This document shows positions 9,273-60,900 of a stretch of 64,000 nucleotides of DNA, piece after piece. Source of the DNA: Botryllus schlosseri (taxonomy: Eukaryota); contig CM119374.1 in the NCBI GenBank assembly GCA_051294905.1, forward strand, positions 14,446,001 to 14,510,000. Direction: 5' to 3'. The stretch's first letter is position 1; each line of letters begins with the position of its first letter. Under the pieces are notes generated by a model. That model had not been told where the DNA came from. It saw only the letters and a program-made list of their open reading frames with translations, and ran no database searches. The translations under genes were made by a program, and so were the position numbers.

Positions 9273-9991
9273 AATATATTCATATTACATCACACGAGTC
9301 TGATTTTACTATCGATCTCGCGAAACCGATAGATTCTGGTGAATGGGAGATAGGGCTTGCCGAGTTGTCTTTTAAAAATAATTTTCAGCCCACGTTCGAG
9401 CCTTACGACGGCTTATTATGGTACGTGAATGATGCGGAAGGCGATAATAATTTTTATTATTTCCCGGCTGGTGATTATCATGATAAAATTAGTTTGATGA
9501 AGCGTATCAATCACGATCAGAAAAAAGCACGATTTATTTGGGTAGATGGTTCTGGTCCGGTCTTGATAGCGGGACCCTACAAGAGTTCCAGCGGTCCGAC
9601 ACTTTTCATGGATAATAGAAACCCCGTTCTCAGAGGAGGCGCTCGTTCGGAGGTAGAGCTAGATGGCGGATTACATAGACGAAGAACGATTCACTTTCAA
9701 GGGGAACCTGTGTCCGTGACCAACGTTTTAGTTTATACGGATGTCATCACACCTCAAATTGTAGGTGATACGAGTGCGCCTCTACTTCGCAATATCCGCG
9801 TTACGACAGGAATAGATGAATATCAGCATATGCTATTCAAAAAAATATATTTCTTTCCTCTGAATACGGAGCGAGTAAGCCAGATTCGCGTTATGCTTCG
9901 TGATGATAAAGGCGAAGCTATAAAGTTTGGGAACGCGCCTCTTCATCTCACACTTGCTTTGAGACATCATGAGGAGTCATTATTGCTGTGA
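9269..9991 (+). CDS. Minor capsid protein (penton), copy 2
   Basis: FTIDLAKPI..GEWEIGLAELSF and VYTDVITPQIVGDTSAPLLR...YFFPL...LRDDKG. Confidence 0.87.
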   Translation: MKYIHITSHESDFTIDLAKPIDSGEWEIGLAELSFKNNFQPTFEPYDGLLWYVNDAEGDNNFYYFPAGDYHDKISLMKRINHDQKKARFIWVDGSGPVLIAGPYKSSSGPTLFMDNRNPVLRGGARSEVELDGGLHRRRTIHFQGEPVSVTNVLVYTDVITPQIVGDTSAPLLRNIRVTTGIDEYQHMLFKKIYFFPLNTERVSQIRVMLRDDKGEAIKFGNAPLHLTLALRHHEESLLL

Positions 9992-10340
9992 TCGGGAGGC
10001 GTTCAGAAACTATTATCACCAACAGAGCGGTGGTGATATCAATTTTTTTCGGGGTAAAGTGCAGAGAGGTCATGGACTTGGAAACTTATTTCGTTCGTTC
10101 GGAAGAAGCGTTATGCCCTTAATTTCGAAAGGTGCAAAATCACTCGGGAAGCGTCTACTACATACCGGTGCGCAAGTAGCCTCTGATGTTCTTAATGGAG
10201 AGAATGTCGGTGATAGTCTTAAAATACGCGGCAAAGAAGCCGCTGGGAACGCTCTCGATTCTTTACTGAGAAAAAGAAAAATACCAAGACGGGGCCGTAA
10301 GATCACGAAAAAGAGACGTCGCAAAGATATTTTCGATTAA
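9969..10340 (+). CDS. Small basic virion-type protein with QxGG/QxGxG protease-type sites and amphipathic helix
   Basis: YYHQQSGG...QRGHGLGNLFRSFGRSVMPL and an Arg/Lys-rich tail. Sits immediately before the MCP. Confidence 0.8.
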   Translation: MRSHYCCDREAFRNYYHQQSGGDINFFRGKVQRGHGLGNLFRSFGRSVMPLISKGAKSLGKRLLHTGAQVASDVLNGENVGDSLKIRGKEAAGNALDSLLRKRKIPRRGRKITKKRRRKDIFD

Positions 10341-10389
10341 ATATATATTACACGACGATAAGCATCATTTGTTACTTGAGACTTGATAG

Positions 10390-11667
10390 ATGGCGGAGTT
10401 AATTCATGTACAGTCCCCAGAGGGGGTACATCCCTCATTGGATTTATTTCACATTCCCGCGACACAGACTAGCGTTGAAAAGAAAAGAATCATCAAGATA
10501 GCACCGATTTCGAACAACTCTAGTGTGATAACATTCCGCTTTGAGGGCTCAGAAGACTTTATCGATTTGAGCGAGAGCTATTTCTTATTTCATTTACAAT
10601 TAAAGAAAGGTGGCGAAGCAATTGGCGCCGACGATGATGTTGGAGTTGTAAATAATATCTTGGATTCCTTGATTACTCAACTACAAATTAAAGTCGCTAA
10701 CGAAACTTTGAAACAAGATATAAAAGTACAGTGTTATTCGTCCTATCTGCACAATTTATTCGCTCCGCTTGACGTGCAAAGTACCACACTGAGGGCCTCA
10801 GGATGGAGAAAAGATACTTTAGGAGAAATGGATACGATCGGTGGAACTAACGCCTCGGCTAACAAAGGATATTACAACAGGAGTAAAGCCTATAAGGATG
10901 ATAACGTGGTGGAAATACGTGCAAAAATCCATCACGGACTATGTCTGCAAGACCGCTACATCCTACATGACGTGCCTCTCGAGTTTGAGCTTACCTTGAA
11001 TCCGAAAAGCTTTTTCATGATGGGAGATGCTACCGGTCAATTCACCTTAACGAAAAAGGAATTACAGTTATGTAGCGTACGAGTCAGCGACGATGTGAAG
11101 ACAGCGATGATGGTGAATGCCCAGGCGAAATATCCGTATATCGACATGAAATTGATCACCCGAACATTTGCGGCTGCTACGACGCAGATAGATATCGGGA
11201 ATCTATATAGCGGGACTCTACCTTCTCGCCTAATCATCGGAATGGTAGCTACGAAAGCCTTTCAAGGAGATGTTACGAAAAATCCTTATAATTTCATACA
11301 CAATAATATGCAACGACTCGAACTGAAACTGAACGGATTTCTGATTCCGGAGGGAGGTTATGAGCTAGATTTCGATAAGGGTCATTACACGGAGCTTTAC
11401 CATAACCTGATTGAGGGTACGGGTGCAATGGAGAGAAACACAGGACTCCTAACACCTGAAGAGTTCGCTAGTGGTTTCTGTCTACTGGTTTATAATTTGC
11501 GTCCTGATGATTTGGATGATTGCTTTGACTTACAAAAGAGTGGTACCTTAAGTTTACGGATCACATTTCCTGCTGGCGGGCTAACAGCGGAAACTACTTT
11601 GCTCTGTTTCATGGAATTCCAGAAGCTATTGCAAATCAGTAGCAGTCGTAAAGTGACCGTGCTATGA
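10390..11667 (+). CDS. Major capsid protein (double jelly roll, hexon-like)
   Basis: LDLFHIPATQTSVE, G.LPSRLIIGMV...AFQG...NPYNF, GFCLLVYNL. 425 aa, intact. Confidence 0.93.
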   Translation: MAELIHVQSPEGVHPSLDLFHIPATQTSVEKKRIIKIAPISNNSSVITFRFEGSEDFIDLSESYFLFHLQLKKGGEAIGADDDVGVVNNILDSLITQLQIKVANETLKQDIKVQCYSSYLHNLFAPLDVQSTTLRASGWRKDTLGEMDTIGGTNASANKGYYNRSKAYKDDNVVEIRAKIHHGLCLQDRYILHDVPLEFELTLNPKSFFMMGDATGQFTLTKKELQLCSVRVSDDVKTAMMVNAQAKYPYIDMKLITRTFAAATTQIDIGNLYSGTLPSRLIIGMVATKAFQGDVTKNPYNFIHNNMQRLELKLNGFLIPEGGYELDFDKGHYTELYHNLIEGTGAMERNTGLLTPEEFASGFCLLVYNLRPDDLDDCFDLQKSGTLSLRITFPAGGLTAETTLLCFMEFQKLLQISSSRKVTVL

Positions 11668-12119
11668 ACGGGGATGAAATAGACCAAATATTGTGGTGCT
11701 GCGAGTCAACAAAACATATTTTCCTTGGTACATTTCCTATCGATCGACTGCCGAGGCGACCCCCTCCTCCTTATGCTATCGTGATCAATTATGACGAAGC
11801 TCGAAAAATCGGAAGTCACTGGATATGCATTTACGCGGATGAGGATGAGACACATTTTCACGATAGTTTTGGCTTAATGCCACTGAAATACGAGATTGCC
11901 TGCTTTATAGAACCAGAAAATTATACCTGCTCTATAAAGCGTCTGCAGCACAAACGTTCCAGAGCGTGCGGTCATCATTGTCTAAGCTTTATCGTTCATA
12001 AGGCGCGCGGATGGAGTACGGAACGTTATTTAAATTCCTTTGGCGAAGATCACCGCAAGAATGATTCGATCGTGCGTCGCTTCGTCAAGGAGCTGAAGCA
12101 AGAAAATGAAATTGTGTAA
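11664..12119 (+). CDS. Adenain-like cysteine maturation protease
   Basis: IVINYD..GSHW, FHDSFG, LQ..RSRACGHHC (His/Asp/Gln/Cys set present). Confidence 0.95.
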   Translation: MNGDEIDQILWCCESTKHIFLGTFPIDRLPRRPPPPYAIVINYDEARKIGSHWICIYADEDETHFHDSFGLMPLKYEIACFIEPENYTCSIKRLQHKRSRACGHHCLSFIVHKARGWSTERYLNSFGEDHRKNDSIVRRFVKELKQENEIV

Positions 12120-12130
12120 ATGTATATGCG

Positions 12131-12136
12131 AATAAA
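12131..12136 (+). terminator. AATAAA polyadenylation signal closing the viral gene block
   Basis: 11 nt after the protease stop, followed by T/G-rich sequence. Confidence 0.6.
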
Positions 12137-12242
12137 ATCAATAGTTTCAAAGTTTGCTTAGTACGTTTAAGGGCGATATTCGCTACGTTCATTATAGCAA
12201 TCATCTCAATCAGCAGTAGCGACCTGCTTTCGATTAGGCGAT

Positions 12243-13099
12243 AGTGGCTACATATTACCATCATCTAGCAAGAAACAGGAATTTGTATTGAGTGACTTCG
12301 CTCCTACAGCAAACGCAACTTACATTACGGCGTTACTGAACATCGAGTAATAAGCGGGACTAGTCAGGCTACCCTTAATACGAATTTGCATTTTGCTGGT
12401 ACAATCTATGCTATAGTTGAGCGACTTTGATACGACCTCAGCACACTTCTTTGATATAGCTGCGCAACGATCTAGACTTGAACGTCTGATACAGATGTGA
12501 TGTTATAGCTTCAACTCATAGCGTTTTAGGAGATAAATTATAGCATAGGTTATAGATTTTATTCACAATCGGAAAAGCATCAGTTCACTAACTATTAAAA
12601 TCACGCATCTAAAAGCAGCTTATGGACTAGTGGCTTCATATTATCATCATCTAGCAGGAACCAGGAATTTGTATTGAGTGACTTCGTTCCTATAGCCCCT
12701 GCAAACGCAGCTTACGTTAATACGGCGTTACTGAACATCGAGTAATAAGCGGGACTAGCCAGGCTACACTTAATACGAATTTGCATTTTGCGGGTACAAT
12801 CTATGCTATAGTTGAGCGACTTGAAATGATACGACCTTGGCATACTTCTTCGATATAGATGTAGCTGCGCAACGATGTAGCCTTGAACGCCGACGTCTGG
12901 AACAGCCGCGATGTCGGTGATCTGAAATCTTAAGATATAGCTTCAACCCGCAGTGGCATAGCGTTTTAAAAAAAGAGATAAATTATAGCATATAGACATA
13001 GGTTTAGCTATAGATTTTATTCACTATCGGAAATGTTATGATAACGCATCAGTACACTAGCTATTAAAATCACATATCTAAAGCAGCAGCTTATGGACT
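12243..13099. repeat. Two diverged tandem units (12243-12628, 12629-13099) related to the 713-bp array
   Basis: Both start AGTGGCT.CATATTA.CATCATCTAGCA and end AGCAGCTTATGGACT. They share blocks (GAGTAATAA, TAGCTTCAA, AAATTATA) with the 713-bp unit. Confidence 0.85.
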
Positions 13100-13286
13100 T
13101 GTAAAATCAACATAATATCAGTAGTTAGATGCTTGCTACAACTCGCAATTTACCGCCTTTATGGCATGAGTAAAGCTAGCTAAAGATTTAGCTTCAAGAC
13201 GCTATGGCGTAGCGAATTTTAGAATAGCTCATAAATTATATTTTTCAGCCCACGTTTTGCGACTTTAGTATAGGTATTGGATCTAA

Positions 13287-16200
13287 TTGGTGGTTAACAT
13301 TATAGCCACGCATAGAACTCATTATTACGTTAGCTATTGGAGAAATCTCAACGTAAATCAATCCGCGTTCACAATTCGCGTAAGCTAATGCTGCATCGAG
13401 AAATTATAGCTACATTTAGTTTAAATTGGAACGAAAATACATTGATCTTACCTTATGCCTGCGATGCCTGCATCCCTGCGCACATGGCAATACTTGTCAG
13501 CAGCTTATGGACTTGTAAAATCAACATAATATCAGTAGTTAGATGCTTGCTACAACTCGCAATTTACCGCCTTTATGACATGAGTAAAGCTAGCTAAAGA
13601 TTTAGCTTCAAGACGCTGTGGCGTAGCGAATTTTAGAATAGCTCATAAATTATATTTTTCAGCCCACGTTTTGCGACTTTAGTATAGGTATTGGATCTAA
13701 TATATTCTATAAAACATGTGATTACGTTATTAGCTATTTAAATGATGCGATATAGGGGAAATCTCGGTGTAATTCAATCTGCGCATCATTGAAAAAATTA
13801 TAGCCAATTATTGATGAGGCAGTGGGGCAATCTGGTGAGGTTCTTGGCCGCGTGAAATAGGATGTTTCAGCTTAAAACTCAACGCATTAGCATGCCTAAT
13901 TTATAACCACAGCGAGATTCGAGTAATAACCGAGGCTAGATAGTCTACCTTTAACAGAAAACTTGCATATACATTCGAATTTGTACGACTTCGGCTATAT
14001 TGGTGGTTAACATTATAGCCACGCATAGAACTCATTATTACGTTAGCTATTGGAGAAATCTCAACGTAAATCAATCCGCGTTCACAATTCGCGTAAGCTA
14101 ATGCTGCATCGAGAAATTATAGCTACATTTAGTTTAAATTGGAACGAAAATACATTGATCTTACCTTATGCCTGCGATGCCTGCATCCCTGCGCACATGG
14201 CAATACTTGTCAGCAGCTTATGGACTTGTAAAATCAACATAATATCAGTAGTTAGATGCTTGCTACAACTCGCAATTTACCGCCTTTATGGCATGAGTAA
14301 AGCTAGCTAAAGATTTAGCTTCAAGACGCTGTGGCGTAGCGAATTTTAGAATAGCTCATAAATTATATTTTTCAGCCCACGTTTTGCGACTTTAGTATAG
14401 GTATTGGATCTAATATATTCTATAAAACATGTAATTACGTTATTAGCTATTTAAATGATGCGATATAGGGGAAATCTCGGTGTAATTCAATCTGCGCATC
14501 ATTGAAAAAATTATAGCCAATTATTGATGAGGCAGTGGGGCAATCTGGTGAGGTTCTTGGCTGCGTGAAATAGGATGTTTCAGCTTAAAACTCAACGCAT
14601 TAGCATGCCTAATTTATAACCACAGCGAGATTCGAGTAATAACCGAGGCTAGATAGTCTACCTTTAACAGAAAACTTGCATATACATTCGAATTTGTACG
14701 ACTTCGGCTATATTGGTGGTTAACATTATAGCCACGCATAGAACTCATTATTACGTTAGCTATTGGAGAAATCTCAACGTAAATCAATCCGCGTTCACAA
14801 TTCGCGTAAGCTAATGCTGCATCGAGAAATTATAGCTACATTTAGTTTAAATTGGAACGAAAATACATTGATCTTACCTTATGCCTGCGATGCCTGCATC
14901 CCTGCGCACATGGCAATACTTGTCAGCAGCTTATGGACTTGTAAAATCAACATAATATCAGTAGTTAGATGCTTGCTACAACTCGCAATTTACCGCCTTT
15001 ATGGCATGAGTAAAGCTAGCTAAAGATTTAGCTTCAAGACGCTGTGGCGTAGCGAATTTTAGAATAGCTCATAAATTATATTTTTCAGCCCACGTTTTGC
15101 GACTTTAGTATAGGTATTGGATCTAATATATTCTATAAAACATGTAATTACGTTATTAGCTATTTAAATGATGCGATATAGGGGAAATCTCGGTGTAATT
15201 CAATCTGCGCATCATTGAAAAAATTATAGCCAATTATTGATGAGGCAGTGGGGCAATCTGGTGAGGTTCTTGGCTGCGTGAAATAGGATGTTTCAGCTTA
15301 AAACTCAACGCATTAGCATGCCTAATTTATAACCACAGCGAGATTCGAGTAATAACCGAGGCTAGATAGTCTACCTTTAACAGAAAACTTGCATATACAT
15401 TCGAATTTGTACGACTTCGGCTATATTGGTGGTTAACATTATAGCCACGCATAGAACTCATTATTACGTTAGCTATTGGAGAAATCTCAACGTAAATCAA
15501 TCCGCGTTCACAATTCGCGTAAGCTAATGCTGCATCGAGAAATTATAGCTACATTTAGTTTAAATTGGAACGAAAATACATTGATCTTACCTTATGCCTG
15601 CGATGCCTGCATCCCTGCGCACATGGCAATACTTGTCAGCAGCTTATGGACTTGTAAAATCAACATAATATCAGTAGTTAGATGCTTGCTACAACTCGCA
15701 ATTTACCGCCTTTATGGCATGAGTAAAGCTAGCTAAAGATTTAGCTTCAAGACGCTGTGGCGTAGCGAATTTTAGAATAGCTCATAAATTATATTTTTCA
15801 GCCCACGTTTTGCGACTTTAGTATAGGTATTGGATCTAGTATATTCTATAAAACATGTAATTACGTTATTAGCTATTTAAATGATGCGATATAAGGGAAA
15901 TCTCGGTGTAATTCAATCTGCGCATCATTGAAAAAATTATAGCCAATTATTGATGAGGCAGTGGCGCAATCTGGTGAGGTTCTTGGCTGCGTGAAATAGG
16001 ATGTTTCAGCTTAAAACTCAACGCATTAGCATGCCTAATTTATAACCACAGCGAGATTCGAGTAATAACCGAGGCTAGATAGTCTACCTTTAACAGAAAA
16101 CTTGCATATACATTCGAATTTGTGCGACTTCGGCTATATTGCCGGTTAACATTATAGCCACGCACAGAACTCATTATTACGTTAGCTATTGGAGAAATCT

Positions 16201-16330
16201 CAACGTAAATCAATCTGCGTTCACAATCCACGTAAGCTAATGCTGCATCGAGAAATTATAGCTACATTTAGTTTAAATTGGTACGAAAATACATTGATCT
16301 TACCTTATGCCTGCGATGGCTGCCTCGCTG
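13287..16330. repeat. Tandem array of 713-bp units (starts 13287, 14000, 14713, 15426, partial 16139), preceded by a deleted unit at 13084-13286
   Basis: Exact 713 spacing of TTGGTGGTTAAC, and of the repeated 86-aa ORF calls. Only a few substitutions between units. Confidence 0.97.
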
Positions 16331-16858
16331 CGCACATACTTGTAATAGAAATGCGAAGTTTTCAGAATGCGAATTGCTTTACGTCGGAACTAAACATTCT
16401 AATTCGTAACGCCAACGCGGCATTTTCTTGGAAACGCAACTTTATTTAGAATGTTCTAATTCACTTTGTCGATGTGGCGCAACTTTTTGGAATCGTAAGC
16501 AACTGTATTCGTGGCACATTTACACGCGTCAATTTCTTGGAATAGTATTCAGCAATATGCGCGTGAGCTTTCGCGTCATTGTAGACATTTATGGTGGCGA
16601 TATCTGCATTATCAAGTTGCATTCGCAGAATTCCTCAAAATCATTGACTAATTAATGATGACACAAGTGTTATAGTCGAACATAGTCTTACATTTATGTG
16701 TTATTACTCGAAAAAGGTGTTGTCTCGGAATTTAAGAGAGAATCGGTGGTTATATTCTCAAAACAGCTCAATACGCCTAGTTTGCTCAATAGACTGGTGG
16801 TGGGCGATGTGAAATTATACCCAACCAAACCAGGTTCGATTCTAGCTAAGGTAAGTTT

Positions 16859-17178
16859 TGACGTGGCAATGAGTGACATAGGTGCAGCAATCGACATCGC
16901 GCGGGTTGATGCTGTGCAGCCTATAGATGCGGCAATCAATGCGGTGATGATATGGCAATGGATGATGTGACACTATAGACGTGGCAATGGGTGTGCTATA
17001 GGTGCGGCAAGTGACGTGGCAATGGGTGTCCTATAGGTGCGGCAATGGGTGGATGATGTGGCAATGGGTGTCCTATAGGTGCGGCAATGGGCGGATGATG
17101 TGGTAATGTAGGCGTGGCAATTAAGGCGACGTGGCGAAATTTGATTGGCCTGCAACAAAAACGGATAACAACACTACT
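16859..17178 (-). promoter_or_regulatory. Putative Polinton terminal repeat with GTGGCAAT/ATAGGTGCGGCAA repeats, four GACGTGGC motifs and an ERSE
   Basis: 42-bp tandem units at about 17022-17105. GACGTGGC at 16860, 16978, 17013, 17128. CCAAT-N9-CCACG on the minus strand at 17130-17148. ACTACT end. Confidence 0.65.
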
Positions 17179-27991: not shown

Positions 27992-30900
27992 TGTTGTGAG
28001 CACGAAACAATATTCGTAAGCAGTTTATTACTTCGGCTTAAATGAACTAATACCTTGACTACGATACTCGCAATACCAACAGTTAAGACAACAGCAACAT
28101 AAATGAAGAACGGTTCTCAGTACACGAAACAGGTAGGCAGTCTGCAATCATTACAGTCCACGCCAGTACATTACGACGAATGATCTTTAACACAGAAAGG
28201 TAATCACAACAAAACTGAAGTCGGTACCAATTTGACACCAAACATACAACATTCACCCCTCCTTATTTCAATGAGGCACTGGTTGTCCGTATCTATTCGG
28301 TGGGACGCCTCGTGTTATTCTAGAGGAGCGGCGAGGTACAACTTGCATTTCGTTTGAACGGGAAGGAGAATTGTCCCCTTCGTTTGACGGTTCTTCATCC
28401 TTCTGGGTAACGAGCTTGCAACCCTCGATGGCATCGGGGAGCTCCTGAATAACTGGATTTTCCTCCGGAACTTGCGGACGAGGACACGGGGCAATATCGG
28501 TTATTGCAACGTTTCTTTCTCTTCCATCGACGTGGCGTACGTTCGCATACAACGGGTTGGCGTTCAACAGTTCCACTTCCTCCACCGAATCGTCGTTTTT
28601 ATTTGAACGGGCGTGACGTTTCAGGAACACAGAACCAGGTTGGGATAACCAAGTCGGCAGGGTCTTTCCGCTGGGTAGCCTGCGATTGAAACCAAAAAAC
28701 AGTTCATGCGGAGTAGAATTTGTACTAGTACAAAGCAAGGAGCGAGTCGCTCGCAATACATGGGGTAAAGCTAGCTCCCAGGATTCGACGGGTAACTCGT
28801 GTGATCGAAGGTATAATCGGATCGCTTTCCACAAAATCCCATTATAGCGTTCGACTTGAGCATTTCCGGTCGGATGATAAGCGGTAGAATGGCTGCTTGC
28901 AACACCCTTACAGAGTAGGTAATCTTTGATTTCGCGAGACATGAACGAACTACCACGATCTGAATGAATGTAATTAGGCGTACCACAAAGCGCAAATAGC
29001 TCATCTAGACATTTGATAACAGTGGATGACCACATATTTGGACAAGCGAAGCAAAATGGAAAGCGTGAAAACTCGTCAACCACTACTAGTGTATATCTGT
29101 TACCAGAGTTCGATGGTATGGGACCTTTGAAATCCATGTTTAAACGCTCGAACGGTTTTGTAGACTTGATAAAGACTCCCTGTTCTCGGCGATAAAACCG
29201 AGGCTTGATTTCGGCACACACTTGACAGGTCGAGCATACTCTTTTAACATCGGACGTTGAGTAGGGCAAGTTCTGCGAACGAACGATATGAAGAAGCCGG
29301 GTGACTCCCGGATGACATAGCTCTCGATGCAGTTCTTCGAGATTACACGTGGAAATGGACGAACAATGGGCTCGGGTCAGGGCGTCGGGCGCACTATGCA
29401 ATTCTCCTGGCCGATATCGAATATCGTACGTGAACTGCGCCAAATCTATAGGCGCCAACACTGAACCTTATTGTTCTTGATTTTCGACCGCTTTCGCATA
29501 TCGAACATGAACGAAACAGCTTCCTGATCCGTGATCAATGTAAATCTTCGTCCTGCCAAAAAGTGCTGCCATTTCCTCACTGCTTCGATAATAGCGGTCG
29601 CCTCTTTCTCGACGGCAGGGTAGTGCTTTTCGCTATTGTTGAGCGTGCGGGACATGAAAGCAATAGGTCGGCCACCCTGATTCAACGTCGCCGACACCGC
29701 GACATCGGAGGCATCACACTCCACCACAAAGGGCTCGTCGTCATCGATCGCTTGTAAAGCGGCGTCCTCCACGCCCTTTTTCAATGCATTGAAATCATTC
29801 AAGCACTTCGCGTTGATTGGAAAATCGACACAGTTGATCAAACTTGCAATTTTGTCTGAGAACGCTGGTATCCACTTTGCGTAATAGGCAAATAATCCCA
29901 ATGCCCTCTTCAGAGCTTTCTTGTTTGTAGGTGGAGGCAATTCACGCAATGGTTTCAATCGCTCCGGATCAGGTTTTATGACACCACGACCAACGCGGTA
30001 TCCTAATATATCCACCTCTGCAACCGATGAAATGGCCTTATTGTGGTTGAGGGTCATGTTTCTTGCACCCAACGCATTCAGCAAGCGCTCAACATTTTTA
30101 TCGTGTTCCTACTGTGACTGGCCTGCGACAGTGACATTATCAAGGTATGGAAACGTATCTGTCAGTTTATCCGAATCGACAATCGCGTCCATAGTTCGTT
30201 GAAATGCGGGTACACCGTTCGTGACCCCGAACGGCAACCGATTGAACTCCCACAATCGACCGACGGCTTCAAAAGCGGTAGGCGCTTTATCGGACTCTCG
30301 TAGCTCCAATTGGTGATACGCGCTCTTCAAATCAAAAGTTGAAAATACTTTGTATTTTGCCAGTTTTTGTACGATGTCCTCTATGCGAGGTAACGGATAG
30401 GCATCGAGTACCGTAAAGCGGTTCACAGTTTGCGAATAATCTATGCACATTCGCTTTTTACCGGATTCTTGATTGGTTACGACCAATGGCTGAGCGCGCC
30501 ATGGTCAACTACTTGGTCTTATAATTCCGTCTTTGGACAGCTTGTCAACTTCACATTCGATGAAAGATGTATCTGCAGCGCTATAACGCCTTGATCGCAC
30601 GCACACTGGCTTGAAATCTGACGTAAGGGACTTGAAGAGTTGTGGACATTTCGTGTTAGATGCTAGAGCAGCACAGGTTCTACGGTCCTGAGATGCTATA
30701 ACGAGTTCCGGGTCTTTGCCATTATACGTGAACACCACGCGTTTGTGCCGTTTCTGAAAGTCTTGAGCAAGTATTATATCGCAACAGAGATCTTTCATGA
30801 CGCCTAGCGTGACATTTTTGTAAACCTTCCCGTTTAACAACAACTCTACGATGCATTGACCAGAGATGGATTCTTTCAGAGACTTTGCCGCCATCGTTAC

Positions 30901-32171
30901 GCAATCTGTATAGGGCAACGCCCGCAATTTCATCGCTTCAACTGTCCTTGGATTGATGTAGCTTAAGCCACTTCCAGGATCCATTAACGTTGACATTCGC
31001 TCGTCTTTTAGGAATGTATCTATGATTGCGTAACGCAAACATCTTGGTGCTTCTTGTATAGCGCAGGACGAGGACGAACTATGTTTCGTGGATACTGTTT
31101 TTCGAGTGGATGCATCTGCTACACTTTTGCAAACTTTCGAGTAGTGCCCCGTCTTCCCACATTTGTAACAGGTGGATGAGCTTGCTGGACAATTTTTACG
31201 GGCATGTTGAATTTTGTCACCACAAAAATAACATTTCCACTCGCCACGATGCACAGCTGCTGCAGCGTTTTCACTTTCTTTGTCGGATGCTGCTTCGGAT
31301 TGAACGGTTGCTATTGGAATCTCGGCACCGCCAGAAGACATGTACGAGGACGAATTTCTTTGTGCAATGTCCAAGGTGCGGGCCTTCCTAAAGGCACTGT
31401 CAATTGTCAATTCGGTTTCCTCCAACAACCGCTGCCGTATGGCATGCGAAAGAATGCCGTTGATGAAGGAGTCTCGAATAAATCCGTCTCGGTGTTCAGT
31501 TTTGGAGACTGCAAGAAAGTTACAATCCTTGCTTAATCTGCGTAGTTCTTGCAAATATTCATCCAAGCTTTGTCCGTGCTTTTGTTTCGTTGTCGCCAGC
31601 ACATGACGTGCAAACACCTTGTTATGTGCTTTGACAAATAGGTTGTCTAACGTTGCAATTGCGGTTTCATAAGTCTCAGCTTCATCGATATACTCGAAAA
31701 GGACATACGATAAGAAGTTTGTAAGAATCTTGAGTTTTTCTATTCTGGCACTTCCTGTCTCGAAGGCCGCAAGATAATTCTCGTAAGTTCTTCGCCAATG
31801 CTTCCACTCTTTCTCTGACGTCGGGCTATTGGGTTCAATTTCCAATACCTTCGGTTTCAACGGCTTCAGTGCTTCAGACATTGTATCGTCAAGAACTTTA
31901 GTTCATTTAATTGTTGTGAGCACGAAACAATATTCGTAAGCAGTTTATTAGTTCGGCTTAAATGAACTAATACCTTGACTACGATACTCGCAATACCAAT
32001 AGTTAAGACAACAGCAACATAAATGAAGAACGGTTCTCAGTACGCGAAACAGGTAGGCAGTCTGCAATCATTACAGTCCACGCCAGTACATTACGACGAA
32101 TGATCTTTAACACAGAAAGGTAATCACAACAAAACTGAAGTCGGTACCAATTTGACACCAAACATACAACA
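27992..32171 (-). mobile_element. Full-length Ty3/Gypsy LTR retrotransposon (non-chromoviral, Mag-like), inactivated
   Basis: 260-bp LTRs 27992-28251 and 31912-32171 (TGT...ACA, 3 differences), 5-bp TSD AAGTG, PPT at about 28252-28267. Confidence 0.97.
28268..31881 (-). pseudogene. gag-pol (gag with CCHC knuckles, PR, RT, RNase H, integrase) with two nonsense codons and one frameshift
   Basis: RPSS*PWRAQ at about 30505; AGQSQ*EHD after YLDN at about 30109; +1 frameshift at about 29446-29455 (QCWR/IDLAQF). Integrase MDFKGP, SDRGSSF, VERYNG. Confidence 0.92.
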
Positions 32172-53582: not shown

Positions 53583-56500
53583 CAGGGGTTCTCAACCTGG
53601 GGGGCGCGGGAGGCTCTCAGGGGGGGCGCGAGAAATTGACGAAGTCAGTATAGGGGGGGCGCGAGAAATTGACAAAGTCGGTATAAATTGTACGTGTCTA
53701 AACATGTGTTTCACATCCATTATGAGAAGACGATTAATGATGATGAAACTTATTCTATATTCAAGAAAGCTTGCAAAATACAAACTCTAGCAACAGCGCT
53801 CAGCGGAGTATAGGCTGATTTCAACTTCATTTGAGCAAATTTTTGAAATTCTTTGTTGATATAGAGAGCAATTCCCACGTGTAAGTCATTCATTGCTTCA
53901 TAGCTTTGACATTAGCCAAAAGCTTGTCGCGCTGGGCAGCTCTTGTTAGTAGCTTGCGAACTGCACTGCCTAAGACAGACTTAGATGCAATATAGGTTGC
54001 CCGTTTTCGCCCTCAATTAGGCTACCCTAAATCAACACAATTTAATTCAATTCCAAAACTGATCAAATTTAGCATGGCAGGACAGAACGACGCCATACTC
54101 CAAGTGGTCACTACCAGCATACATCTATCTCGCACTAATAACATCGATCACCACATATTCATGTTATTATCTTCAAACTTACAGGCTTATCATACCTGAC
54201 TCCAAAATTTGTTAACATTTCGTGGATAAGTCGCTAGATCACAAATATTACAAATAATGAAACTTTTTACGTAATAAACATAAGTTATTTGTTCTCATCT
54301 ACAACTATCTGAAGATTTATCGGGATTACTGTTACAATGTTACACGTTCTGTACTTTTGAACATTCCGCTAGTCAAGCGAATGGATGATATTATGAACGG
54401 TATTACGTGGTTTACATTCATCAAGCGCATGATCATGATCATATATCGTTGTCAATTGCACGATGATGTCACAATGAAATTGTCGGATCAGGTGCCACAT
54501 TGTCTGCATCTGTGTCGCCGAGGTTTCCACTCATGTCGATTTCGATAATATTGCTATTGTAGGCAGCGGCGTGGGCGTGAATTTTCATCGACATCGTCAA
54601 TTTGCTTGAACTAGTATGAGTGGTAAAAAGAGAAAGTATGTAGAATATTATCTGAAATTTGGATTCATAGAGACCATTGTAAATGGCGAAGTTGTGCCGC
54701 AATGCGTGATATGTTTTCAAAAACTGAGCAACGACGCGTTGATACCAACTCGTCTGGAGCGTCATCTCGAGAAAAAACATTCCGCCCATCAAATTAAGCC
54801 TCTATCTTTTTTCCACAGCAAGAAAGCCTCATTTGAGAAAATGAAGGGTGCATATAGCAAGTGCTTTCGTCAATCTCCGGCTGCTGAAGTCCTTGAAGCG
54901 TCTTACGTAATTACTTACATGATAGCTCTAGAGAAGAAACCCCATAGTATTGGCGAAACGTTGATAAAACCCTGCATGCTACGAGCAGCTAGGCTCGTGT
55001 TGGGTGAGGCGAGCAGTAAGAAGCTTGCGGGGATTTCTCTTTCTAATTCTACCATTAAAAGACGCATCGATGAGCTCGCAGAGGATATTGAGTGTAAAGT
55101 TATAGATAAGATTCACGCATCACCTTATTTCGCCATTCAGTGTGATGAGACGACTGACGTTGCTCAATTGTCTCAGTTGATGGTCTATGTTCGCTTTGTT
55201 GGGCCTACTTCAATCGAAGAAGACATATTATTTTGCAAACCCTTGGAAACGACTACTAAATCAGAAGATATATTCGAACTTGTCGCCACATTTTTTGATA
55301 ACAATGATATAAAATGGGAGAAACTTGTTGGCGTCTGCACTGACGGTGCCCCAGCAATGATTGGATCGCGAAGTGGATTCATTGCCAGGATAAAGCAAAG
55401 AAGCACAAATGCGGTAGGATCGCACTGCGTGATTCACCGAGAGGCTCTTGCTTCCAGAACTCTACCTGCTGCAATGAAGGATAATTTTGCAATATTCATT
55501 CGAATCGTTAACTTTGTCAAAGCAAGTGCAGTCAATACGAGATTGTTTACTAAACTGTGCCAAGATATGGATTCCGATCATGAAACTTTACTGTTTCATA
55601 CATCTGTTCGGTGGTTGTCAAAAGGTAATATGTTAGCTCGAATCTATGAAATGAGGGAAGAACTGAAGCTATTTTGGGAAGCTCATGGTAAAAAGGATCT
55701 GCTTCTGTCGTTTACATCAGAGAAGATGCAGCTGCAGTTGGCCTACTTTGTGGACAGATTTCAAGCCCTCAATAATTTAAATCTCTCCCTACAGGGGAAG
55801 GATGCGAATCGCATTGCAGACTATGATGCGATTCACGCTTTCGTAGAAAAACTTGGGCTGTGGTATCGTCGAATTCAAAAAGGAAATGCGGCTTCATTTT
55901 ACAACCTTGACACTATACTTGACAAAAAAATTGAAATGAAGGGCGCGCTCAAAGCCGAGGTGGAGAATCACCTTCAACTTCTGAAACAAGAATACGAACG
56001 CTATTTTCCAGACTTGAATGATACCGAGCTTCCGGAATGGCGGATGACAAGGAATCCCTTTCATTTGAATGTGGATATTCTTCCGGGCTATTTGCAAGAG
56101 GAGTTTTTGGATCTAAAATGCAATTCTACTGCAAGAGACGACTTTGAAGCACTACCACTTACTGAGTTCTGGGTAAAATATATCCACATCTACAAGAGTG
56201 TGGGTGATGTGGCTATACCCATACTTCTTCCATTTTCATCCACTTACCTGTGCGAAAAGGGTTTTTCTACTCTTGTGAATATGAAGACAAAATCAAGAAA
56301 CAAACTCGACTGTGAATCCGATATGAGATGCGCATTATCTGCTACCTATCCTAGAATTGAACATTTGGTATCCAAAAAACAGGCGCAGCCTTCGCATTAA
56401 GATTAGTCTCGGTGCACCTTGAAATAAATTGATGTATTGTTCAATATTTTTTTGGTATTCTCAAACGAGTTTGGGGGAAATTAATCAGAAATGAAGTAGA

Positions 56501-57975: not shown

Positions 57976-60900
57976 CACTGGTAAACACTATTTTTGTTGA
58001 CTTTGCTCAGACAATTGATATTGACGACTAACTTTTGGGCGCTGAATTAAAAAATGACTTCGGTTTTTCTCTATCACATAACTTTTTTGGGTTAGGCACA
58101 CACCACATTGTCTCATAACCCCCATAATGGCACTATTTTTAATATTTTGTGTTTATTGTATAAAACGTTTCAAAAACCACAAGCAGTCGAAAGTAAATCA
58201 ATAGACTTCAAATAAACATTTGCACTGATTTATGTGACTGGGTTTAAACTGATATTGCTTCTACATGACAAACAAAGTGTGAGTTTCAGGGTCCCAATTT
58301 ACGCTAATAACCTATAATTCTGTAGGTTGTCTAGTTTGATACTCGAGCAATAGTCAGCTAACATATATAGGCATTTGCCATTCACTTGACTTGTAAATTG
58401 GGATTCCTAACTCCTCCGGTAATCCATGGTAACGGTATCATGCAAATGCCAGCATCACGGTAATACACAAAGCTACCGAAAGTAGGCCTACGAAGTAAAT
58501 GCTATTTCTCCTGATCGAACGTGAGATACCTTCTCTATTTTGCCAAGTAATCTTTTATCACTTCATAAGGATGTTAAAACAACCGAAGATTTCTATTCCA
58601 TGTCCCAAAGCTTATGTCAGATCAATAACTCGTGTTAATGGAGTATACTCTACGTTCTGAATGGTCCGTGGACATATTAGCATGCGACACAATAGCAAGC
58701 GACACTTGAGCATGCGACACTTGAGCATAGCGACTTTTGGTCATGGCGACTCGTGGGCATGTAGACACATGAGCACAGAGACATATTAACATGAGGACAT
58801 ATTAGCATGGGGACACATGAGTATAGGGACACACGAGCATGGATACACGTGAGCATAGGGACAGATCAACATGGTGACAATTTAGTAAGTGCCACTTGAG
58901 CATGGTGACACATGAGCATGCGATACATGAGCCTTGACGACACATGAGCATGGGTACACAAGAGCATGGGCACACGTGCGCAATTGCGCATATGGACACA
59001 GGGGCATGGGGACACAAGAGCAATTGTGCACATGAGCATGGGGTCACGTACGCATGCGACACTTGAGCATGCTCCCGTCTACATGCAGACACTTGAGCAT
59101 GCGACACGTGGATATGCAGACACTTGAGCATGCGACACTTGGGCATGCGGCACTTGCGCATGCGACACTTGAGCATGCGTCACTTGAGAATGCGTCACTT
59201 GAGCATGCGACATTTGAGCATGCGACACTTGAGCATGTGACTTTTGAGCATGCGACACTTGAGCATGCGACATTTGAGCATGCGACATTTGAGCATGCGA
59301 CACTTGAGCATGTTAGACTTGAGTATGCGACATTGGAGCATGCGACACTTGAGCATGTGACCATATACATTTGTGTTAAAAGCTTCAGAAATCGAGGTAA
59401 AGCGATAAAGGTTGCCATTGCTCCACATATATTGGAATCGCGTTTACACGTATCGGACGAACTAAAAGAATATATCCTTTTGTGAGACGAAAGCGATTCC
59501 AAATTCGCATTTCGACACGGGACTTATTATTTTATTTTGCGGGTCTCTTTTGATAGGGAAGTTTTACGTGCCGTGGGTGGGTAGGGGGAACATTAGGGTT
59601 CGAAGTGGGTTAGGGTCCATGCTGTGGTTAAGGTATCCCAAGATTAGGGTTGGGGGTGATGGATATTAGGGTTGGTTAGGGTTAGGGTTAAGGTATCCCA
59701 TGATTAGGGTCGTGGATTATGGGTATTAGGGTTGGGAGGGGGATATTAGGGTTAGGGTTATAGGGTTAAGGGTAAGGTATCCCAAGATTAGGGTTAGGGT
59801 TTGCGTTAGGGATAAGGTATCCCAGGATCAGGGTTGGGTTGATGGGTATTAAAGTTGGGAGCGGGGATATTAGGATTGGAGTAAGGGAGATATATTATGT
59901 TCGGACTGGTCTAAATCCTTGATTTTGACGCTAGTTAACTACACACTAATATATGAAAAATGCTCAAGTGTCGTATGCTGAAGTGACGCATGCGCAAGTG
60001 ACGCATGCTCAAGTGTCGCATGATCAAGTGACGCATGCTCAAGTGTCGCATGCTCAAGTGCGGCATGCTCAAGTGTCGCATGCTCAAGTGTCGCATGCTC
60101 AAATGTCGCATGCTCAAGTGTCGCATGCTCAAATGTCGCATGCGCAAGTGTCGCATGATCAAATGTCGCATGCGCAAGTGTCCTCATGCTCATTTGTCAC
60201 CATGCTGATATGTAACCATGCTCATATATCACCATGTACAAGTGTCAACATACTGAAGTGTCCCAATGGTTATGTGTAACCATGCTCACGTGTTACCATG
60301 CCCATATGTAACCATGTCGATTAGTCTCAATACTAATGTTTAACCATACTCAAGTGTCGCATGCTAATCTGTTTCCATGCCCATGTGTCCCCTTGCTCAT
60401 GTTTCACCCTGCTGATATGTCCCCATGCGCATGCATCCCCATGCTCATGTGTCCCTATGCTCATGTGTTACCATGCCAATGTGTCCTCATGCTATAGCGT
60501 CGCATGCTTAACTGTCGTTTTTCCTTGTGTCGCATGCTCATATGTCGGGCAACCGTTCTGAATCAACTTCGATTTCAAAATCTTCATCATTTGGCCTGCT
60601 ATCCCTAAGATCTTCATCTTGATCCAAATTATCGAGCTTAGGAGCTTCAGGTTGCACTGGATAAGCTGGATGGGGCATTCGACCTATAGCTGATAGTAAA
60701 TGTCATGTGTATTTTTCTTGCCATATCCTGCAGTTTGCATCAAATATATGTATGAAATATCCTCGGATGATTGCATCCTTTAACCAAAAATGGGTGCAAA
60801 CATCGTCCTAGATCAATACCAGTACATTTTTCCTACATAATTCAATCGAGCCCTTGACTATATAACTTATTATATGGCAAAAGTGTGGATTTATACATGA

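Follow-up and report, generated by a model that had tools for sequence, protein, structure and literature searches.

The element and its genes

The window, by which we mean the whole 64,000-nucleotide stretch of Botryllus schlosseri DNA analysed here, contains toward its left edge an integrated element that is, by its gene content, an intact Polinton/Maverick with its left end outside the window. Twelve tightly packed plus-strand ORFs with no visible breaks occupy positions 414-12119. The principal features of the element are as follows.

414..1655, plus strand: ORF1, 413 aa, with an acidic N-terminal part and a second domain
2044..5922, plus strand: putative protein-primed B-family DNA polymerase, 1292 aa, assigned from its size, its motifs and other Polinton loci
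5926..6543, plus strand: A32-like packaging ATPase (Pfam Pox_A32, E=9e-9; 41 homologues)
7305..8303, plus strand: rve integrase with a chromodomain (rve E=2e-14)
9269..9991, plus strand: second putative minor capsid gene, assigned from gene position and a match in distant locus L006
10390-11667, plus strand: major capsid protein, double jelly-roll (DJR-like) match, E=0.012
11664-12119, plus strand: putative cysteine protease, from a gene-block match
12130..12139, plus strand: polyA signal of the last gene block, context GAATAAAATC, AATAAA at 12131
16338..17178, plus strand: terminal non-coding region, with a B-box match at 16834 and ACGTGGC repeats at 16861-17135

A scan of genome contigs yielded 11 distant Polinton loci, with an ATPase identity of 34-48%. 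The polymerase ORF had tblastn matches to polymerase-region ORFs beside the Polinton ATPases of three of them (L004, L006, and L009), and it had no Pfam polymerase match at threshold. The gene set includes two putative minor capsid genes, the second of which is without a Pfam match, and the capsid and protease matched ORFs of the same gene block in L001 and L006. None of 8 element proteins was present as an exact sequence in the collection searched. Among GenBank phages, the polymerase had no match, and three DNA matches were at chance level. A sigma-70 promoter scan was uninformative for a eukaryotic virus. A perfect 20-bp palindrome lies at 7174-7193 within a 112-aa ORF upstream of the integrase.

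The ACTACT at 17173-17178, which has the form of a terminus motif, is presumably the right terminus; a search of the open-access literature found no paper on this motif. Polintons have terminal inverted repeats and a 6-bp target duplication; here no inverted match to positions 1-413 was found, and the right-end ACTACT was the only terminal feature seen. Transposon-rich host DNA follows. Within 16770-16862, the B-box match at 16834 is followed by a T run, and the fold of this segment was not significant (z -0.5).

The second domain of ORF1 may be a degenerate superfamily-3 helicase-like ATPase, in view of an ESM Atlas feature score of 0.90 to DUF5906/NS1/E1 clusters. This assignment stays a lead because both structure predictions failed: the AlphaFold models were unusable (pLDDT 33.8 and 38.1), which made a fold search on them meaningless. 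Homologues of ORF1 numbered 0 of 2023 candidates and 0 among 1.84 billion representatives. A match to TBP (E=0.25) was too weak and was not accepted. The adjacent ORF2 (1492-2010, probably 111 aa from an ATG at 1675) gave weak language-model matches to tyrosine-recombinase-like clusters, below the threshold of the tool, and no protein family was confirmed for it.

A tandem array in the non-coding right end

The region between the last gene and the terminus is made up of repeats of two ages.

12242..13102, plus strand: older repeat units A1 (12242-12631) and A2 (12628-13102), which share modules with the 713-bp unit
13084..13287, plus strand: 204-bp partial unit copy, which holds patch 2 (see below) at 13238-13256
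13286..16337, plus strand: 713-bp tandem array, copies starting at 13286, 13999, 14712, and 15425, with a partial copy at 16138-16337

The sequence-only reading had described this array as non-coding, nearly homogeneous and situated between the polyA signal and the terminus, and the three points held: no ATG-initiated ORF of at least 100 aa occurs within 12120-17178, the full copies differ at 0-7 positions per 713 bp, and the array lies between the AATAAA at 12131 and the likely ACTACT terminus. The pairwise differences among the four full copies were 3, 3, 7, 0, 4, and 4, and the 200-bp partial copy differed at 10/200 positions. Copies 2 and 3 are identical, whereas copies 1 and 4 carry private variants, which argue for a real array. 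The 713-bp unit is a mosaic of modules, diverged and shuffled, that it has in common with A1 and A2. The array is thus a young expansion of a mosaic unit, with an older 200-bp duplication at its bounds.

Comparison with the host part of the window gave no match above chance. Rfam and ARAGORN returned no RNA family and 0 tRNA genes in the end region, and 9 of 107 folding windows of 100 nt reached z of -2 or lower on either strand. A tRNA origin of the unit was considered and rejected; its likeness to the tRNA of locus L001 scored 43, which equals the top of the coding background.

A patch of ORF1 sequence in every array copy

Each full unit holds a short sequence of ORF1, which we term patch 1.

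592..626, plus strand: patch 1 donor in ORF1, codons 60-71
13805..13839, 14518-14552, and 15231-15265, plus strand: patch 1 in copies 1-3 (32/35)
15944..15978, plus strand: patch 1 in copy 4 (29/29; 33/35), with a Pol III A-box consensus match at 15962-15974

The recurrence of positions 592-620 that the sequence-only reading had reported was reproduced, at 29/29 from 15944 and 28/29 from 13805, 14518, and 15231, as was its extension to approximately 35 nt. The flanks are unrelated, as had been claimed: 12-14 of 60 positions were identical without gaps, and with gaps 368 and 640 of 1000 shuffles equalled the observed scores. Chance is negligible as an explanation, because the best score of a shuffled unit was 19 against the 29 observed (0/2000); when 60 shuffled units were compared with the 12-kb coding region, the best ungapped scores were 11-15. 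At three or fewer mismatches, the patch 1 sequence had 5 matches in the window, whereas 0 of 100 shuffles gave any.

Depending on the copy, the patch differs from ORF1 at 2-3 positions; copies 1-3 have one substitution in common that breaks the match. At 2/35, the divergence is comparable to that of the 200-bp duplication. Within the array, the patch has stop codons on both sides in the reading frame of ORF1. ORF1 is favoured as the donor because the acidic-hydrophobic peptide DDDVTIIDE, which crosses the left patch boundary, is continuous there; we take this peptide to resemble a SUMO-interacting motif. Two shorter words inside the patch recur elsewhere. The 9-mer GTGGCGCAA occurs only at 609, 15961, and 16474, copies 1-3 having lost it, and GCAGTGGC recurs in the older A2 module at 12950.

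A probable second patch from a capsid gene

Each unit also contains a probable second patch, which the match suggests was copied from the second putative minor capsid gene.

9378..9396, plus strand: patch 2 donor (18/19; 15 nt exact)
15791..15809, plus strand: patch 2 in copy 4; also at 13652, 14365, 15078, and 13238

All four copies contain patch 2, as does the 204-bp partial copy. Only two direct exact matches of at least 12 nt were found between the end and the coding region, of 29 and 15 nt, and both lie in the unit; direct exact matches of coding with coding sequence peaked at 13 nt. Both patches are in mRNA sense. Taken alone, patch 2 is borderline because its score was reached by 21 of 2000 unit shuffles and by 21 of 600 shuffles of the whole non-redundant end. 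The older units lack patch 2 and have other sequence at the corresponding site; beyond it, homology with the unit resumes (15/1000 shuffles, one result among 16 comparisons). For this reason the array is the likely recipient of patch 2, which takes the place of A1/A2 sequence and adds no repeat. An empty site in a sister sequence is available for patch 2 (in A1 and A2); for patch 1, the sister sub-module reveals the left boundary only.

Three candidates for a third patch were rejected: 15568-15591 against the polymerase at 3403-3426 (20/24; E 0.09-0.6, not significant), 12911-12937, whose similarity to 10204-10226 (E 6, not significant) is more readily attributed to local duplication, and a minus-strand match of 12196-12216 to the capsid gene (E 0.5, not significant). 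As a separate observation, the only plus-strand B-box match in the coding region (9394-9402) overlaps the end of the patch 2 donor, and most of an A-box is contained in the donor of patch 1; the pairing of the two is probably a coincidence.

Boundary motif, inverted repeats and hairpins

The following features adjoin the patches or lie in the repeats around them.

15934..15943, plus strand: boundary motif AAATTATAGC, directly before patch 1
15868..15947, minus strand: inverted repeat, its right arm finishing in the first bases of patch 1 (z -2.9 for minus RNA, -0.9 for plus)
16116..16172, minus strand: strong 57-nt hairpin at the junction of copies 4 and 5 (z -4.5 minus, -4.1 plus)
12555..12564 (A1) and 13013-13022 (A2), minus strand: polyA-like signal GAATAAAATC

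Patch 1 begins on the base after AAATTATAGC; for patch 2, the related AATTATA stands 1 nt ahead of the exact core. All 11 copies of the 10-mer in the window fall within 12535-16262, against 0.32 expected, and most of these are array copies; the motif was picked after patch 1 had been seen. The presence of AATTATA beside patch 2 has a chance of approximately 0.02, given four such motif ends. A strong sense match (at least 17/20) follows 2 of the 7 ATTATA sites examined. Two sub-modules within the unit are homologous up to AAATTATAGC (0/1000 shuffles) and unrelated past it (360/1000), and A2 has its own separate 13-nt insertion 4 nt beyond the same motif.

Most modules terminate in an inverted repeat, with AATTATAGC as its right arm. 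An ATAGC core with an upstream GCTAT partner was found in 5 of 6 cases in 15425-16337, compared with 1 of 12 in coding sequence and 12 of 57 in host DNA. The pair outside the GCTAT/ATAGC core varies by module yet still pairs, as T-A, G-C, A-T, and, on the minus strand, G-U. Within the unit, nothing serves as an inverted partner to the motif at patch 2. As DNA, the inverted repeat beside patch 1 was not significant (z -1.2 and -1.6), and only the first 4 bases of the patch pair in the adjoining stem. The core of patch 1 is relatively unpaired on the minus strand (88th percentile, versus the 13th on the plus strand). The 57-nt hairpin was picked out of the 107-window folding scan, and its arms match the coding region at 15/22 at best; the corresponding hairpin at the junction of copies 3 and 4 is weaker. 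The GAATAAAATC context occurs 4 times in the window against 0.41 expected, the two minus-strand copies being duplicates of each other.

Related elements

Close relatives of the element are known as proteins (ATPase, 97% and 89%; capsid, 79%). The patches had no match above chance among 43 related proteins, the 11 distant loci and GenBank phages. A right non-coding end lies beside the gene block in 2 of the 11 loci, L001 and L006, both partial contigs. Both ends have tandem repeats, and neither has a direct exact match longer than 13 nt to its own coding part. The repeats are therefore the ordinary component of such an end and the patches the unusual one, as far as two distant ends can indicate (n=2).

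These loci provided several further observations. At 9467-10017, L001 has three tandem units of approximately 180 bp at its right end; the first contains a tRNA-Met predicted by ARAGORN. Degenerate copies and another tRNA-like part are also present, a T run following each, and these may be Pol III small-RNA genes. In L006, positions 11232-11323 and 3-80, which lie downstream of the outermost genes, exhibit co-linear inverted similarity that could be the inner edge of a diverged terminal repeat, and tandem repeats of approximately 150 bp follow at 11359-11723. In L005 (3163-8546), 622-bp inverted repeats that are 99% identical enclose a Polinton-type ATPase, the sole Polinton gene detected there; this is possibly a captured fragment.

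Origin of the patches

The sequence-only reading had left three options: an antisense RNA, small RNA or decoy against ORF1, a protein-binding site used in both places, or a template-switch scar later amplified. The last was the best supported. A same-sense patch 2 stands at the same motif, the older repeats contain the empty site, and the newest array copies carry a mismatch to ORF1. We consider it somewhat better than an even chance (roughly 0.55) that the patches arose through template-switch capture at a rearrangement hot spot and were then passively amplified. On this reading the right non-coding end, a mosaic with modules mostly ending in an inverted repeat, is prone to rearrangement. DNA synthesis would stall or fray at the end of an arm and change template, mostly locally, producing small duplications and fold-backs. 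Two of these switches would have entered coding genes of the same genome in direct orientation, copying approximately 30-35 nt of ORF1 and approximately 15-19 nt of the minor capsid gene. The enzyme would probably be the viral protein-primed polymerase, using single strands that had been displaced; host end-joining is the other candidate. Unequal recombination or slippage, made possible by an older 200-bp direct repeat with a spacing of 713 bp, would then have multiplied the unit together with its patches, as divergence suggests. Junction similarity between each patch and its donor is 6/10 on one flank and 1/10 on the other; the value of 6/10 is equalled at 1.8% and 3.6% of coding positions. 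Neither a function nor selection is required to account for the patches.

The hot spot and a selection for guides predict largely the same anatomy. A leftward transcript from the terminal region could be an antisense regulator that damps the early gene ORF1, in latency or in the exclusion of close relatives, a reading that we regard as possible but unlikely. Such an RNA would present 29-35 nt against the ORF1 mRNA and approximately 19 nt against the capsid mRNA, beside hairpins, and might act directly or as piRNA/siRNA. It would be favoured by a minus strand carrying both patches antisense, by the polyA context after the last gene on the plus strand and twice on the minus strand to the left of the array, by the relatively open patch core and the 57-nt hairpin of the minus strand, and by the persistent pairing outside the GCTAT/ATAGC core; HzNV-1 pag1 offers a precedent (PMC3216547). 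However, few folding windows reach z of -2, the patch is not part of a Dicer-type stem, the strong hairpin has arms that reach no coding target above 15/22, 3 of the 4 copies have an extra mismatch and a weaker hairpin, and Rfam gave no match. It is more doubtful still that the end region is a hairpin-plus-guide cassette that takes 15-35 nt pieces of viral genes after AAATTATAGC and is read leftward to yield guides against ORF1 and the capsid gene; if true, an animal Polinton would here possess a means of self-regulation or exclusion that can be reprogrammed. A programmed, site-specific acquisition in the manner of CRISPR or integrons, in which an enzyme of the element would insert pieces after AAATTATAGC and so record itself or its relatives, appears very improbable. 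The fixed boundary, fixed orientation, 15-35 nt length and sub-threshold recombinase-like matches of ORF2 are in keeping with it, but the modules are diverged instead of identical, patch 2 replaces sequence without an added repeat, most of the examined ATTATA sites (all but 2 of 7) lack a strong sense match, the 43 related proteins match no better than chance, no nuclease or recombinase was found among the element ORFs, and 0 of the 2 distant Polinton ends have patches.

The remaining explanations concern what the shared sequence is and in which direction it moved. The patch could have been kept as a putative protein-binding site, for a host factor or as a Pol III A-box, and would then multiply an enhancer or promoter that is likewise present near the terminus; we judge this improbable. 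The 9-mer GTGGCGCAA recurs close to the terminus (16474), the stretch 16474-17131 contains GTGGCRM 9 times and the coding region twice, copy 4 holds the only 13-nt match in the element to the A-box consensus, and the distant L001 has tRNA-Met-derived tandem repeats at its right end. Nevertheless, a site of 9-13 nt leaves 29 identical bases unexplained, the motif is missing from copies 1-3, no B-box stands at tRNA distance (the nearest plus-strand match is at 16834), and neither ARAGORN, Rfam nor the L001 comparison indicated a tRNA. That the disordered N-terminal region of ORF1 instead took the piece from the repeats is a slim prospect, slightly below that of programmed acquisition. Disordered regions tolerate insertions, and GCAGTGGC is also present in the older A2 module; against this, the ORF1 peptide context is unbroken over the patch boundary, the array is the recipient in the case of patch 2, and the sister sub-module has unrelated sequence past the motif. 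A chance match or an assembly artefact is barely credible: the identity of copies 2 and 3 means that the copy number could be mis-assembled, but 0 of 2000 shuffles reached the patch 1 score, variants private to one copy are present in copies 1 and 4, and 2-3 positions separate the patch from ORF1.

Comparison with known systems

The gene set described for adintoviruses (Polintons/Mavericks) in PMC8502044 agrees with that of the element in its polymerase, A32-like ATPase, chromodomain rve integrase, capsid genes and protease, and also in having genes of no known identity upstream of the polymerase and a transposon-rich host setting. The element differs in the same-sense patches of its own genes in its end repeats, which were seen in 0 of the 2 distant loci. 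No report of self-derived patches in Polinton end repeats was found in the open-access literature searched. tRNA and other non-coding genes have already been reported in Polinton-like viruses (PMC12220804), and PMC9683012 added nothing further on them.

The best classification for the array is a templated-insertion scar whose site bias is unusual. Like template-switch scars, it has a short direct copy, an inverted-repeat end and partial junction similarity; unlike them, it has donors in coding genes at distances of 6 and 15 kb, its motif is reused, and the product was then tandemly amplified. The HzNV-1 pag1/PAT1 system shares with it a repeat-rich non-coding region with trans-acting potential on an early gene of the same virus; according to PMC3216547, a repeat-rich viral RNA represses an early gene in trans. 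That system differs in having verified stem-loop miRNAs that promote latency, whereas here a near-perfect copy lies outside a stem. A viral miRNA cluster of the pag1 type places its targeting sequence in the arm of a 60-70 nt hairpin, and patch 1 is not so placed. CRISPR arrays similarly have a variable virus-matching piece of 15-35 nt after a fixed motif in one orientation, but here identical repeats and spacers do not alternate, whole 713-bp units repeat with the same patches, the targets are genes of the element itself, and one patch replaces sequence. No Cas, acquisition or effector gene family was found among the element ORFs. A Pol III tRNA-like gene combines an A-box, a downstream B-box and a cloverleaf, whereas the array has an A-box in copy 4 only. 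Baculovirus homologous regions and adenovirus end repeats resemble the array as imperfect-palindrome, non-coding repeats near an end and plausible enhancers or origins; they are not known to contain copies of coding sequence.

New in this analysis are the probable patch 2, the common boundary motif and the older repeats at 12242-13287. These features bear on how integrated Polintons remain silent, become active again or exclude relatives, and they concern non-coding ends, of which few descriptions exist. Even if it is a scar, the array documents template switching with a site bias in the genome of a Polinton, and it offers viral non-coding RNAs a possible path to near-perfect complementarity with genes of the same virus. 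If the patches are transcribed and selected, it would be a guide-acquiring array in a eukaryotic virus.

Other features of the window

The host DNA to the right of the element contains additional mobile and repetitive sequences. The coding region of an LTR retrotransposon lies on the minus strand at 28268-31902, with three ORFs (gag-protease, RNase H-like, and integrase), and a 596-aa ORF with a hAT transposase dimerisation domain lies on the plus strand at 54610-56400. At 58670-60493, two minisatellite blocks with units of 15-16 bp that resemble reverse complements of each other surround a short stretch with telomere-like hexamers.
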